From the NCBI GenBank assembly GCA_030429505.1, contig JAUIFI010000001.1, forward strand, positions 390,001 through 422,000: a stretch of 32,000 nt of DNA, in the 5' to 3' direction. The translations under genes and the position numbers were made by a program. The notes under the pieces are model-generated. The model was given only the letters and a program-made list of their open reading frames with translations. It did no database searches and was not told the DNA's origin. Numbering within the stretch: position 1 is the stretch's first letter; every line of letters starts with the position of its first letter. The stretch is from Candidatus Saccharimonadota bacterium (GTDB lineage Bacteria; Patescibacteriota; Gracilibacteria; UBA4473). Below are positions 3,241 to 9,890 of this stretch, piece by piece.

Positions 3241-5970
3241 CTACAAAGATTTCCACACTGGACTCACAAAGAATGGTGTTTTGCCTTCAGTTTTCTTTAT
3301 CTCTGCATAGGTGCCATCACTTTTATGTACGAGATGAATTTCTAAAACCTCTTTCCCACCATCAGTTCGCACAGTTCTTATTTCTCCATTATCACGAATT
3401 TCTAAGCCAGATTTATTACCTTCTTTATAGAAAAACCTCCCATCCTTAACAGCTACAGAGACAACAAGTACTCGTTTACCATCTTTAGTCGGCTTATATA
3501 CATCTAATCGCTGATGTTCCTGAGGTTTAAGCTGTACCACATCTCCTTTTTTCAAAGATGGTTGTTCTCGTTCAAGTTGAAACTCTCTCCCTCGGTTAAG
3601 TTTTTTAATGACAATATCGTCACCACTTTTCCGAAATTCTAAACCTTTAAGATCTTTTGAACCATCGGCAACAATAGTAGAACCCGCATCAACCTTTCGA
3701 TATTCAAAAACACTCGCTCCTTCAGGTTTATAACGAATCCAGTAATTATTATTACGAAAAATAACACTCACATTTAGACTTTCCCATCCTCCTAGAGCTC
3801 TTCGGCGGTTACGAACAGATATAATTATATCATGTTTATTTAAAGGAATAGTAGCTTCTTTCCCTTTACCTGACAAAGTTTCACTCACTCTAGTTTCTTT
3901 ATACAAAGAACCTTCTTCTTTTGATTCTATCATCTTTTCTGAAGGAGCTTTCTTCTCCTTCTTTACAGAAGTTTGCTCCTTCGTTTGTGGCTTCGATGTC
4001 GGATTTCGTAAAGCTTCCATGACACCATCCCAATCCTGATTTCTGTAACGCTGAAGCAAATGATGTCCAATTCTCATAGAAGCAGTAGTCAAAAGGGTTT
4101 GCAAAACATTATCAGCTATATCTTCAGTAAAGAATTCAACTAACTTTTTATAAGAAAAACCACTCGCGAATAATTCATGCCCTAGCTGAATCGTAAATAA
4201 AGCCAAAGCCTCAGCACCTACAGCTCCCATGTACACCAAAGATGCTTTTAACTTTTTTCCAGCGACAGAAGTCGGATTCATAGCTTTAGATTTAGAAATA
4301 GAGTCAAAAATCTTAGAAACCATCGTACTATCAGAAGAGATTCTAAGATTTCTAGGAAGTGCCTTTATACCATTATGAACACTATAAAAAGTCCACATCG
4401 TTAAAGTACTCATAGCCGCTCTTTGAATCCAATCAGGAGAATCAAAGAACCATTCTTGTTCTATCAAAGCATCATGACAAGCCTCAAAAGCTACAGCATG
4501 AGGAGCAAAACGAACCCCTTGACCTATAAAACTACCAATCCTAGCAAATCTGGGAAAACTTGCTCTTACGCTCTTAGAAAGTACATTTGCAACCACTTCG
4601 GTTCCACGCCAAAGTTTGTTAATAGAAGATATTCGAAGAAATTGACGTAATATCAAAGAACTACCTTTCACAACACCTCCAGCTAGAACAAATTCAAGAC
4701 CTCCTGTAATAACCTGAGCAAGAACATTCTCTCCGCTATCAGAAAGATCCCACCAAGCAAGACCCAAAGCGCCTTCATATTCTCCAAAAATTTTTCTCTC
4801 CATGTCAGTCCAGCCTTTTTCACCTTGTAAATTATGATCATAAATAAAATTGGCAATCATCTTATTTTTTGAGTTTTGGAAGTGAAATTTTTTCAAATCA
4901 TCAACCATATCATCACGCATGGAAGCAGCCTCGCCAGAAATTTGCTTTTCTACATCCTCCATCATATTTTCACCTGGATTTTCTTCATACCATTGCTTTA
5001 TTTTCTGATCCCGAAAAGCAATATAATACTGATAACGCTGTTCATGAGAAAACTGATCTTCAACATCTTCCTCTGCATCCTTCCGTAATTCAGACTCTTT
5101 TCTCTTGAATTCTTTCTGAAAATCTTCACGCCGAGAAACATCATCAAAATGTTGTCCTAAAATCTCCACACACAAAGCTTGTGCCTGAGTAGAATGTCCT
5201 CCCATATGTGAATCTCGAAGCATCTGAATAACATTTAATCCATAGTGCAAAACTTGTTCACTATTCTGTACATCTCTCAAAATGCCCCCCTCAAATTGAT
5301 TTTGAGGAATCAGTCCAAAGAAGTGTGTTTCTTCTAATTCCAATAAATGTTTTTTAAAATTGGACATTCCATCTCGTTTACAAAATTCTTTCATAACATC
5401 ATCAAGATTAGAAAAAACAGGATTATCGTTATCTCCATTATTTATTTTAGGAAACATCAATTGCAATTGAAGATTGGAAATATTCTCTTCAAATATACAA
5501 AGTTCATTCCAAAAAAGATCAAAATCAAACCCAAAAGGATTCGAACGATTTATAAGATAAGCAAACCCTGAAAGATAATCCTCACCTTCTCCATTCTTAA
5601 TCACTGATTTCAAAGCCAATAAAAATGTAGTTAAAAATTCAAATTGTTTTAGCCGAGCTTCCTGGACAGAAGTAAGTTTTATCTCCTGCTCTTCAAGGTT
5701 CGTCGATAAAAGTGCATCAAACAAATCACTTTTTTGTTTATAAGAAAGTAATTTGATTCCTTCATCAGACTGAACTTGAGATTGAGACTCTTTATAGTAA
5801 AAGAAAGAAGAAAATTCTTTCCGATAATCTATCTTCTGATCCAAAGCATCCAAAGAACTCCACACCTCAGGATTATAAATATCAATAGAATCACGACGAG
5901 GAATCTCTTGCCAGATAAAACGTGTCAACTGCTCTTTCAATACCACATCTGATCGAAAAATATATTTCAT
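3241..5970 (-). CDS. 909-aa protein of unknown function (last gene of the SLT-giant module)
   Basis: Long uninterrupted ORF starting 9 nt downstream of the 138-aa gene. No signal peptide. Central cluster of Gly/Ala-rich hydrophobic/amphipathic segments (VLAQVITGGLEFVLAGGVVKGSSLIL, AAMSTLTMWTFYSV, ASLVYMGAVGAEALALFTIQLG; about nt 4051-4758). Ser/Lys/Glu linker, then a basic beta-rich C-terminal ~220 aa. I recognise no family. Confidence 0.85.
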   Translation of the reverse strand: MKYIFRSDVVLKEQLTRFIWQEIPRRDSIDIYNPEVWSSLDALDQKIDYRKEFSSFFYYKESQSQVQSDEGIKLLSYKQKSDLFDALLSTNLEEQEIKLTSVQEARLKQFEFLTTFLLALKSVIKNGEGEDYLSGFAYLINRSNPFGFDFDLFWNELCIFEENISNLQLQLMFPKINNGDNDNPVFSNLDDVMKEFCKRDGMSNFKKHLLELEETHFFGLIPQNQFEGGILRDVQNSEQVLHYGLNVIQMLRDSHMGGHSTQAQALCVEILGQHFDDVSRREDFQKEFKRKESELRKDAEEDVEDQFSHEQRYQYYIAFRDQKIKQWYEENPGENMMEDVEKQISGEAASMRDDMVDDLKKFHFQNSKNKMIANFIYDHNLQGEKGWTDMERKIFGEYEGALGLAWWDLSDSGENVLAQVITGGLEFVLAGGVVKGSSLILRQFLRISSINKLWRGTEVVANVLSKSVRASFPRFARIGSFIGQGVRFAPHAVAFEACHDALIEQEWFFDSPDWIQRAAMSTLTMWTFYSVHNGIKALPRNLRISSDSTMVSKIFDSISKSKAMNPTSVAGKKLKASLVYMGAVGAEALALFTIQLGHELFASGFSYKKLVEFFTEDIADNVLQTLLTTASMRIGHHLLQRYRNQDWDGVMEALRNPTSKPQTKEQTSVKKEKKAPSEKMIESKEEGSLYKETRVSETLSGKGKEATIPLNKHDIIISVRNRRRALGGWESLNVSVIFRNNNYWIRYKPEGASVFEYRKVDAGSTIVADGSKDLKGLEFRKSGDDIVIKKLNRGREFQLEREQPSLKKGDVVQLKPQEHQRLDVYKPTKDGKRVLVVSVAVKDGRFFYKEGNKSGLEIRDNGEIRTVRTDGGKEVLEIHLVHKSDGTYAEIKKTEGKTPFFVSPVWKSL

Positions 5971-5979
5971 AGTTTTAAA

Positions 5980-6396
5980 TTAAGTCCAATTATCAACCTC
6001 CGCCAAAACAGCATCATGATCTTCACCCGCTTCAAACTGCGCCTCCTTTTGTCTTAAAGCTTCTTGTTTATCTAAACGATATTGCGCTTTTTCATATGCT
6101 TTTTTATGAGCTTCTTCAGGGTTAATAGGCTGTGAAGATCCATATTTTTGAGCAATTTCATCCAATTTATCTCGTTCACGTTTCAATATACTGTAAAGCT
6201 TTCCAAGCTGAGCTTCACTCATCACTTCAGATAAAGTAAACCAATACTGCTTCTCCTCATCATCCATTGCCTCGGAACGAAGGATGAGCATTACGAGTTC
6301 CTTTTTTTCATTGAGTAACTTATCCGGAATCCGGAAATCCTTAATAGTTTTTCCAGATTTGGTTTTTACGTCTTGCAAATTAAACAACTGACTCAT
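5980..6396 (-). CDS. 138-aa acidic helical protein, unknown function
   Basis: The ATG overlaps the upstream stop (ATGA at 6393-6396), implying translational coupling. Contains the motif AMDDEEKQYWFTLSEVMSEAQLGKLYSILKRERDKL followed by a predicted coiled coil. Confidence 0.8.
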   Translation of the reverse strand: MSQLFNLQDVKTKSGKTIKDFRIPDKLLNEKKELVMLILRSEAMDDEEKQYWFTLSEVMSEAQLGKLYSILKRERDKLDEIAQKYGSSQPINPEEAHKKAYEKAQYRLDKQEALRQKEAQFEAGEDHDAVLAEVDNWT

Positions 6397-9653: not shown

Positions 9654-9678
9654 GAGAAAATATCATACAATTCACAAG

Positions 9679-9707
9679 ATTATACCATAAAATATCTATT
9701 GCCACAA
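9679..9707 (-). promoter_or_regulatory. Putative strong promoter of the 1086/138/909 operon (TTGTGG-17-TGgTATAAT)
   Basis: The minus strand reads TTGTGG (9707-9702), caatagatattttatgg, TATAAT (9684-9679), with TG at the extended -10 position. It lies 25 nt upstream of ATG 9653. Confidence 0.5.
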
Positions 9708-9890
9708 GTCTTTTGTCTGCTCATCAAACTCCTTCTCAAAAGATTCAAATTCTTTCTCTTCGTATTGTTTAATATTTTTATGAATAGCTCTGACCTCTTC
9801 TTTTGATTTAATATCACCACCAAAAACACCCTTTTTTCCATTCCCCTTTTTCTGCAAATATTTATTATGAAAAAATGTGTGACGAGACAT
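9696..9890 (-). CDS. 64-aa Lys/Glu-rich small protein, hypothetical
   Basis: An ORF in the otherwise empty ligA-divergent spacer. It is preceded by its own good promoter (feature 9921-9950). Its 3' end overlaps the -35 of the downstream operon promoter. No homology recognised. Confidence 0.45.

Follow-up and report, generated by a model that had tools for sequence, protein, structure and literature searches.

Four minus-strand genes between ligA and tagA

The window analyzed here, 32,000 nucleotides (nt) of contig JAUIFI010000001.1 from a Candidatus Saccharimonadota bacterium, carries on its minus strand a compact block of four genes for proteins of 64, 1086, 138 and 909 amino acids (aa), which the original prediction had taken for one system delivering a wall-cutting protein. 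The 64-aa gene (9696-9890) is followed by the 1086-aa gene (6393-9653), the 138-aa gene (5980-6396) and the 909-aa gene (3241-5970), each read as an open reading frame (ORF), and the block ends at the convergent plus-strand gene tagA (2411-3229), which encodes a WecG/TagA/CpsF glycosyltransferase (Pfam PF03808, 2.7e-46). The sequence ATGA at 6393-6396 overlaps the stop of the 1086-aa gene with the start of the 138-aa gene, 9 nt (tttaaaact) separate the 138-aa stop from the 909-aa start, and the 909-aa stop (3241-3243) lies 11 nt away from the tagA stop at 3229; reading frames, overlap and both gaps reproduce exactly the coordinates reported earlier. The module is a composite of a conserved trio (the 64-aa, 1086-aa and 138-aa genes) and of lineage-specific additions, namely a lytic-transglycosylase head and a tail of ~190 residues on the 1086-aa protein and the whole 909-aa gene, and it sits in a ~1-Mb CPR genome (candidate phyla radiation, also called Patescibacteria) that uses genetic code 11. 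The 909-aa protein begins with a short clade-specific leader, on which the interpretation offered below is built.

The backbone of the locus consists of the 64-aa gene, a fast-evolving acidic gene referred to here as the big gene, and the well-conserved 138-aa gene, converging on tagA. It was traced in the ligA-linked loci L001-L015, in L056 and L059/L060 and in metagenome loci with tblastn and by mapping their ORFs, and was found in about 30 related Gracilibacteria/Peribacteria-like loci (L001-L014, L056, L059 and ~22 metagenome loci). The order there is ligA, 64-aa homologue, big protein (525-895 aa, and 576-895 aa in the ligA-linked loci), 138-aa homologue and tagA, the trio being oriented opposite to the two flanking genes. 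P0006 (764 aa, E = 3e-28), which matches the core of the 1086-aa protein better than any other homologue, belongs to a trio of 64, 764 and 146 aa between ligA and tagA, and the more distant locus L056, in an 828-kb genome, retains the trio and tagA although dnaX replaces ligA. The 64-aa protein, which has no family match in Pfam, PHROG or NCBIfam, has homologues in the stretch separating ligA from the big gene in nine related loci (tblastn, 40-50% identity, E = 1e-11 to 1e-6), and at the same position 64-aa genes are called in L059/L060 and an 84-aa gene in L056. Within the window, the 64-aa gene, residues 385-897 of the 1086-aa protein and the 138-aa gene all have syntenic homologues, and the 909-aa gene pushes tagA away from them. 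In all trio loci the big gene and the 138-aa gene lie no more than 57 nt apart, which fits co-transcription of the two.

The three proteins compared across these loci diverge at very different rates: big proteins are 12-29% identical, 138-aa homologues 43-53% and LigA 57-62%. The 138-aa protein is 43-53% identical to its syntenic homologues, with a mean column identity of 55% and the signature SESMDDGE[KR]QYWFNL. Its family has 154 relatives in metagenomes, about 22 of which, in close loci, show the big gene leading into the 138-aa gene and tagA facing it, and tagA adjoins the 138-aa homologue in ~20 related loci. The protein has no match in Pfam, and its family profile finds nothing significant in the PDB. 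Outside the trio the family stands alone in lineages using code 25, and its conserved half is elsewhere embedded in an AAA_35-TPR protein or adjoins an autotransporter or a sortase; these fused and neighboring contexts give no coherent functional hint. The embedded case, at L162 6222-11890, places the conserved half (52% identity, residues 9-89) inside a protein of 1205 aa that also has AAA_35 and TPR domains and a PG_binding_1 match below threshold; this protein is encoded directly downstream of a TIR-AAA_35 protein, in an arrangement that looks like a defence system.

These comparisons change the picture of the module as a unit. Tight packing does fit one transcript, as had been proposed. 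The genes do not form one indivisible system centered on the soluble lytic transglycosylase (SLT) domain, since the trio is conserved without the head and without any 909-like gene. What relatives keep is the 64-aa, big and 138-aa genes rather than the 1086/138/909 set expected from the original prediction; SLT heads and 909-like genes are missing from all of them. The suggestion that the 138-aa protein is an adaptor for the SLT protein fails on the same ground: because trio relatives lack the SLT head and the family also occurs alone or embedded in other proteins, it is not a dedicated SLT adaptor.

The 909-aa gene occupies an interval that is much shorter in relatives, where the 138-aa stop lies 1-173 nt from tagA; in the window the distance is 2.75 kb. 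The insertion is compositionally native (GC content 0.359; GC at third codon positions, GC3, 0.248), and no repeats flank it. A word-index search of 5.8 billion proteins returned only the protein itself, a singleton status that is weaker than it looks: for the 1086-aa protein, too, this kind of search gave just a self-match, overlooking a 31%-identical orthologue that full HMMER found. The gene has no match in viral contigs or in 107 related loci (1.02 Mb), and the protein none in Pfam, NCBIfam, PHROG, PADLOC or the PDB. We considered whether its body is a diverged paralogue of the big family; hhalign gave a probability of 0.1 and phmmer nothing significant, only the leader being common to the two. 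Two Gly/Ala-rich hydrophobic segments are located at residues 416-445 (4636-4725, minus strand; Kyte-Doolittle 19-residue maximum 1.79) and 574-600 (4171-4251, minus strand; maximum 1.63), the first of which is borderline as a membrane helix and includes Glu and Lys. The C-terminal third is mildly basic. Hydropathy and charge thus agree with the hydrophobic segments and basic tail noted at the outset, the tail being basic only to a mild degree.

Upstream of the 64-aa gene lies a promoter-like site, TTGCCT-18-(TG)TATAAT (9921-9950, minus strand; 3' part TGTTATAAT), with 10 of 12 consensus matches plus the TG; TTGCCT-18-TGTTATAAT at 9950-9921 is the best consensus match of the region in the promoter scan. 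An extended -10 site, TTGTGG-17-TGgTATAAT (9679-9707, minus strand), was read from the sequence 25 nt before the 1086-aa ATG at 9653. Its -35 element (9707-9702) sits within the final codons of the 64-aa gene and its TGgTATAAT ends at 9679; TTGTGG matches the consensus at 3 of 6 positions, which is below the -35 criterion of the scan, and the site was accordingly not listed by it. Promoter-like sites in this AT-rich region are not in excess (17 found, 20.8 +/- 4.7 expected in shuffles), so the sequences are present as described earlier but are no evidence of function. Of the two promoters proposed earlier, then, both sequences stand, their frequency is that of chance and the second has a weak -35; a functional role for both is plausible.

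All four proteins lack a hydrophobic segment at the N-terminus (Kyte-Doolittle 19-residue maxima over the first 40 windows of 1.19, 0.27, 0.13 and -0.45), in agreement with the absence of Sec-type signals and N-terminal transmembrane helices that had been remarked on. Scans of all four against Pfam, NCBIfam, PHROGs and PADLOC gave nothing significant apart from weak PHROG matches to residues 72-150 of the 1086-aa protein, and PADLOC models gave no match at E <= 1.

The lysozyme-like head and the body of the big protein

Residues 44-190 of the 1086-aa protein (9084-9524, minus strand) make up a lytic-transglycosylase/lysozyme-like head, recognized from HMMER homologues, motifs, AlphaFold2 (AF2) models and Foldseek. 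The full-length protein has no Pfam match at E <= 1 and nothing in NCBIfam, and the isolated head scores 12.7 bits against PF01464 (E = 0.097), under the 21.3-bit gathering cut-off. A full HMMER search of 1.84 billion representatives gave 155 matches, nearly all to residues ~44-190, and the homologues supply what the head itself lacks: 26 of 40 match the Pfam SLT family PF01464 (best 1.7e-12) and 18 of 40 the Rpf-type family PF06737, so that SLT homology is supported transitively. Members of the family have in common the motifs QE[ST]GG, G[KR]YQIMP-NW--W, T--NQD-VA and A--WYG. The putative catalytic residue, Glu59 (codon 9477-9479), is followed by Thr60 in the string AGVET, a Glu-Thr variant also found in homologues P0028, P0034 and P0054; the Glu column is invariant in one alignment and at least 90% conserved in another.

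The structural evidence points the same way. The AF2 model of the head, built on a 40-sequence alignment, has a predicted local distance difference test score (pLDDT) of 92 and a predicted TM-score (pTM) of 0.86. In Foldseek against the PDB, the top 35 matches are all lysozymes, a GH23 chitinase or lytic transglycosylases (Slt70, Cj0843, MltE, lambda lysozyme, phiKZ gp144), with probabilities mostly of 0.8-0.98, yet with E-values of only 0.07-0.5 and TM-scores of 0.4-0.5. The head profile searched against the PDB retrieves the baseplate hub of cyanophage A-1(L) (8kea), a "66 kDa protein" (11mn), lambda lysozyme and RpfC; chain A of 11mn has a G-YQI...PENQDK motif block in common with the head (profile E = 6e-5). 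Judged by homologues and predicted fold, the head is real but divergent; it represents a subfamily within the lysozyme-like clan that is rich in phage members and has no Pfam model of its own, and it is predicted to cleave peptidoglycan with an intact catalytic Glu. The N-terminal lytic transglycosylase first spotted by eye is in this way borne out by SLT-matching homologues, predicted fold and invariant Glu59, even though Pfam itself misses it.

The remainder of the protein is less tractable. It is strongly acidic (net charge -79 for the whole protein), and its full-length AF2 model, mostly helical, has a pLDDT of 65.6, only partly confident given the shallow alignment for the body. Residues 385-897 (6963-8501, minus strand) are the conserved core of the big family, with syntenic orthologues in P0006 (E = 3e-28), L006, L144 and L143, and residues 898-1086 (6396-6962, minus strand) form the lineage-specific tail, for which no homologue was found in 1.02 Mb of related loci or among the HMMER representatives and for which the model is of low confidence. 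The big proteins of relatives are 12-29% identical to the 1086-aa protein, and their alignment contains no conserved stretch. The core has no match in Pfam or the PDB, the family profile finds nothing significant in the PDB, and outside the head the protein resembles no structure in the PDB or the viral library.

The viral affinities of the head raise the question of whether the locus is a degraded prophage or phage module, with the 1086-aa protein as a virion-associated lysin or an ejection protein (T7 gp16 or tape-measure protein) and the 138-aa and 909-aa proteins ejected with it. Viral contigs contain many members of the head family (more than 122 confirmed matches), and the PHROGs that members match comprise endolysins, lytic tail proteins, tape-measure proteins and internal virion proteins that include an endolysin domain. 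Phage proteins are also the best matches by structure: against viral structures, Foldseek places the head next to proteins of Caudovirales and the minor tail protein of a Streptomyces phage (E = 1e-4 to 5e-4, probability up to 1.0). The large-small-large succession of signal-less proteins superficially recalls T7 gp14-16. The closest relative of the head (P0007) is 46% identical and forms the C-terminus of a protein of 1083 aa, encoded on a 109-kb contig whose ORFs are unannotated and which also encodes an LPD38 polyvalent protein. This contig (L057, ERZ25074195 ctg48807), whose ORFs nearly all lack a Pfam match and whose LPD38 protein measures 1858 aa, is probably a large phage or another mobile element, possibly one infecting CPR bacteria.

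The rest of the locus tells against such an origin. The 1086-aa core, the 138-aa gene and the 64-aa gene belong to the chromosome and keep their synteny in ~30 loci with housekeeping neighbors, the 32 kb contain no capsid, tail, terminase or integrase gene, and tblastn of the 1086-aa protein against 50,697 phage genomes gave no match. Tape-measure and tail structures align with its body at probabilities of at most 0.07 (Foldseek, viral structures), GC and GC3 are native, and flanking repeats are missing. A prophage origin of the locus as a whole is therefore largely refuted, and we regard it as highly improbable; plausibly, only the ~150-residue head has a phage origin. The head profile has no match among 1,253 ORFs of related loci or in any of the 80 metagenome loci, read in code 11 or 25. 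An N-terminal hydrophobic segment is missing in 133 of 144 proteins with the head domain.

A leader peptide and its putative cargo

Judged by profile matches, the first 22 residues of the 909-aa protein (MKYIFRSDVVLKEQLTRFIWQE; 5905-5970, minus strand) are a clade-specific N-terminal leader. Its consensus is MK[NKY]L[FI], 5-10 variable residues, then [NT][TS][RKQ]F[IV][WFY]Q[NE], and many syntenic big proteins start similarly (MKNIFRSDSEMVTSQFAYQQ and MKNLFHSESEKDNARFVWQN). Profiles were trained on relatives only, and the survey covered ~10 kb on each side of anchor genes. With the first-iteration profile, the 909-aa N-terminus was the top non-training match of 1,410 N-termini, 1 of 5,000 shuffles scoring higher; with a profile of 21 leaders it reached 18.6 bits (E = 1.2e-5 among 157 N-termini), a score attained by none of 20,000 shuffles (maximum 10.8). 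The next-best matches, P0014 and P0011, chromosomal CPR proteins with a C-terminal domain of the lytic-transglycosylase family, are marginal (E = 0.012 and 0.019). The leader was seen only in trio-bearing lineages. In phages, six viral matches to the DNA pattern all proved spurious, five being 12-aa ORFs and one a 69-aa ORF that matches only MKNLF.

In relatives a Pro/Glu-rich linker usually comes after the leader, and the leader heads many big proteins as well as further genes beside the trio, including an uninterrupted row of five adjoining tagA in L154, five genes in L146 and a ~390-aa gene in L007, L151 and L144. Carriers lack a hydrophobic N-terminus, and their net charge of -12 to -70 makes them acidic. 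Pfam domains of hydrolases occupy the C-terminal parts of several: N-acetylmuramidase (PF11860, 1.5e-30 and 5.5e-33, one of the two also with an RTX repeat), glucosaminidase (PF01832, 2.2e-28), peptidase M15 (PF08291, 6.3e-8) and a GDSL lipase (PF13472, 1.7e-6), the last at 29.1 bits and so under its 32.9-bit threshold. The clusters of leader genes at L154 11606-19575 and L146 5649-7580 and 11676-16314 include the muramidase, M15-peptidase and GDSL-like genes. At L146 14118-15368, the muramidase bears the RTX calcium-binding repeat as well; such repeats are typical of type I secretion substrates. The occurrence of the leader on at least three unrelated wall-hydrolase folds argues for modular reuse rather than simple paralogy. 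Other proteins of the same genomes have clear Sec-type N-termini, which makes the missing signal on these hydrolases informative.

A peptidoglycan hydrolase has no substrate in the cytoplasm. Since wall hydrolases would be useless there and these lack Sec signals, the leader is most simply explained as a targeting peptide for a route other than Sec. On balance we consider it about an even chance (roughly 0.5) that the locus encodes leader-marked envelope-degrading cargo delivered independently of Sec by a machine located outside the interval. The leader would direct cargo out of the cytoplasm, to the wall of the cell itself or to the envelope of a host, and for an epibiotic CPR bacterium the host envelope seems the more plausible target. 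Cultivated CPR bacteria have a host-attached lifestyle (PMC8080830, PMC12102498). The cargo set here would comprise the wall-cutting big protein, which has no leader and onto which the cutting function appears to be fused straight, and the leader-tagged 909-aa protein, whose Gly/Ala-rich hydrophobic segments may confer membrane activity; the 138-aa and 64-aa proteins may serve as accessory factors, for example as chaperone or adaptor. Fast evolution of the big and cargo proteins next to a conserved leader and 138-aa protein fits variable effectors with a constant handle.

A more specific version is put forward only tentatively, and we think it less likely to be right than wrong. The leader would be the export or delivery signal of a hitherto undescribed Sec-independent pathway, specific to this CPR clade, that carries folded acidic envelope-degrading effectors to the host envelope, with the 138-aa and 64-aa proteins as leader-recognizing adaptor or chaperone. 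Candidate effectors in that pathway would be the muramidase, glucosaminidase, M15 peptidase and lipase-like proteins, the transglycosylase-armed big protein and membrane-active proteins such as the 909-aa protein. The earlier idea of signal-less envelope attackers that need a dedicated route finds unexpected backing in these data: the leader of the 909-aa protein heads signal-less muramidase, glucosaminidase and M15 proteins in relatives. The SLT-headed 1086-aa protein itself has no leader.

A number of observations weigh against leader-guided delivery. The N-terminus of the 1086-aa protein scores -0.2 against the 21-leader profile (E about 10), and about half of the big proteins have no leader. 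The 909-aa protein, for its part, has no recognizable enzymatic or envelope-degrading domain, does not have the Pro/Glu-rich linker that most leaders precede, and owes its orphan status to a word-index search with known misses. The 138-aa family exists without big genes and inside unrelated architectures. The leader is not the sole route, if it is a route at all, because the NlpC/P60 hydrolase of L059 has neither a signal nor a leader. Enrichment of wall hydrolases among carriers is anecdotal (~4 independent domain types among the 10 carriers scanned), given a survey of only ~10 kb on either side. The locus has no linked gene for a transporter, an ATPase or any other part of a machine, and export of the leader proteins is a prediction from sequence. 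Profile comparisons also lent no support to the idea that the N-terminus of the 1086-aa protein is a degenerate leader, or a second type of N-terminus in the big family. The NlpC/P60 protein just mentioned (L059 7835-8857, minus strand) is encoded two genes past tagA in the genome of the closest orthologue, and has no hydrophobic N-terminus.

Several of these points can be turned into a different account, in which the hydrolases are autolysins acting on the cell's own wall during division, turnover or the making of room for pili. The leader would then be a regulatory, anchoring or partner-binding peptide, release would follow a holin-like or lysis-dependent route, and the trio would be a wall-remodeling cassette tied to tagA. 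The locus always adjoins tagA, a wall-glycopolymer transferase, it lies among housekeeping genes, FtsW and MurG being encoded in the window as well, several signal-less hydrolases do without the leader, and so does half of the big proteins. However, tagA is convergent and hence not co-transcribed, the interval encodes no holin-like small membrane protein, and the fast divergence of big and cargo proteins against conserved LigA and 138-aa proteins better fits a changing external partner. We judge this explanation rather unlikely, though it is the most serious of those considered.

It can also be asked whether there is a system at all. The trio could be intracellular, the head an incidental or non-functional fusion, the 909-aa protein an unrelated fast-evolving orphan and the leader the conserved N-terminus of diverged paralogues. 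Such a view gains from the lack of a known machine, from the bodies of leader proteins, which are mostly unalignable and without Pfam match, and from the modular 138-aa domain turning up in unrelated contexts. It accounts poorly for a head that retains the invariant Glu, all family motifs and a confident predicted fold, for a leader present on at least three unrelated wall-hydrolase folds, and for wall hydrolases that would have no cytoplasmic substrate; it strikes us as improbable.

If the tag is a targeting signal, as the reading of leader-marked cargo holds, a new effector repertoire would become readable from genomes, a new export route would be indicated in organisms with minimal secretion equipment, and the tag could be used as a tool in reporter fusions. 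CPR bacteria make up a large share of bacterial diversity, and how they breach or remodel host envelopes is largely unexplained; their cultivated members live attached to host cells. The locus offers a concrete handle on this problem, a short tag common to unrelated signal-less proteins with at least three peptidoglycan-hydrolase folds and clustered at a conserved site. Even if the tag is no signal, the four-gene system is resolved into a conserved trio and lineage-specific additions, and the wall-cutting head is traced to a phage-rich family without a direct Pfam model.

Known systems and genomic setting

The head shares its predicted fold, and a conserved Glu followed by Ser/Thr, with the SLT/lysozyme-like clan (PF01464 clan, lambda lysozyme, PF06737). 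It differs in its sub-threshold Pfam score, its own G[KR]YQIMP, NQD and WYG motifs and its N-terminal position on an acidic signal-less protein of ~1,100 aa. Virion-associated lysins of phages (lytic tail or hub proteins, T7 gp16, tape-measure proteins) are similarly large signal-less proteins with a transglycosylase module from a common domain family; the body of the 1086-aa protein, in contrast, represents a chromosomal CPR-specific family without morphogenesis context and without sequence or fold likeness to gp16, tape-measure or tail proteins.

VirB1-type SLT proteins and SLT+CHAP hydrolases of type IV secretion systems (T4SS) offer another parallel, as specialized transglycosylases in a CPR genome. 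In monoderms, VirB1 homologues normally come with a membrane anchor or signal. No virB4, other T4SS gene or CHAP match was found in the window by Pfam, which sets the present locus apart from them. The role of VirB1 and its Patescibacteria homologues have been described (PMC12102498).

Short N-terminal markers on unrelated cargo have several precedents. These include the MIX and FIX motifs of type VI secretion systems (T6SS), payload signals of contractile injection systems, capsid-targeting sequences of T4 and targeting peptides of encapsulins and microcompartments. The leader resembles MIX/FIX, injection-payload, T4 capsid and encapsulin markers in being an N-terminal peptide of ~20 residues, with a usual flexible linker, varied catalytic domains and genomic clustering; its sequence is not known to resemble any of them. 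T6SS, contractile-injection, capsid and shell genes are absent from the loci examined. The literature searched describes neither this leader nor its occurrence in CPR bacteria or its link to the trio.

The neighbors in the window are ClpP, TagA, an NAD-dependent DNA ligase (LigA), a peptidyl-prolyl isomerase-SecD fusion, SecF, uracil-DNA glycosylase (UDG), MiaA, tRNA-Arg, a hibernation factor, a PilB-like ATPase with PilC, FtsW and MurG, at a GC content of ~36%. The nearest LigA relatives (57-62% identical) belong to metagenome-assembled genomes labeled Gracilibacteria, Peribacteria, Peregrinibacteria and "Altimarinota", in which the ORF maps are unbroken under the standard code; together these assign the organism to a Gracilibacteria/Peribacteria-like CPR group using code 11. 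The bacterium is probably dependent on a host, and the four proteins are all encoded on one contig of 1.02 Mb. The 32-kb window contains no capsid, tail, terminase, integrase or conjugation genes, as had been stated for capsid, tail and conjugation genes in the first reading of the locus, and no secretion-ATPase gene adjoins the module.

The PilB-like ATPase and PilC, encoded at 26075-28531, ~16 kb from the module, are the basis of a further idea, namely that the four proteins are effectors of a type IV pilus or type II-like machinery. Type IV pili have a prominent place in CPR host interaction (PMC11623550, PMC8080830). The intervening 16 kb are filled by housekeeping genes (LigA, SecDF, UDG, MiaA, tRNA), the trio of L056 and that of L059 have no pilus genes within 10 kb, the leader is unlike a prepilin leader and lacks a hydrophobic stretch after it, and the literature searched holds no precedent. 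We consider a pilus connection very unlikely, and the proposal of an effector set for the nearby pilus machinery is not upheld, given the housekeeping genes in between and a trio in L056 without pilus genes nearby.

Some further features of the window deserve mention. The LigA ORF (9875-12064, plus strand, 729 aa) is probably over-extended, its adenylation domain beginning at residue 121 and a likelier start being the Met at 10019 (MKISKEDAQ...); the over-long version would run across the beginning of the 64-aa gene and the promoter-like site of that gene. SecD (14255-16444, plus strand) is fused to an N-terminal PPIC-type peptidyl-prolyl isomerase (Rotamase_3, 1e-25), a fusion also present in the relative L056. 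Two Cys-rich proteins without family match are encoded at 12800-13837 and 12137-12595 on the minus strand. The N-terminus of the first, a protein of 345 aa, clearly resembles a signal peptide; SLT-like motifs seemed to be present on visual inspection, but the protein gave neither a Pfam match at E <= 1 nor a match to the head profile. A 390-aa protein encoded at 352-1524 (plus strand) combines thrombospondin type-3 repeats with an F5/8 type C (discoidin) domain and looks like a surface adhesin. Finally, GC skew is negative nearly throughout the window (1-32000, cumulative -5.7), irrespective of gene orientation, which suggests that a single, strongly strand-asymmetric replication arm includes all of the window.

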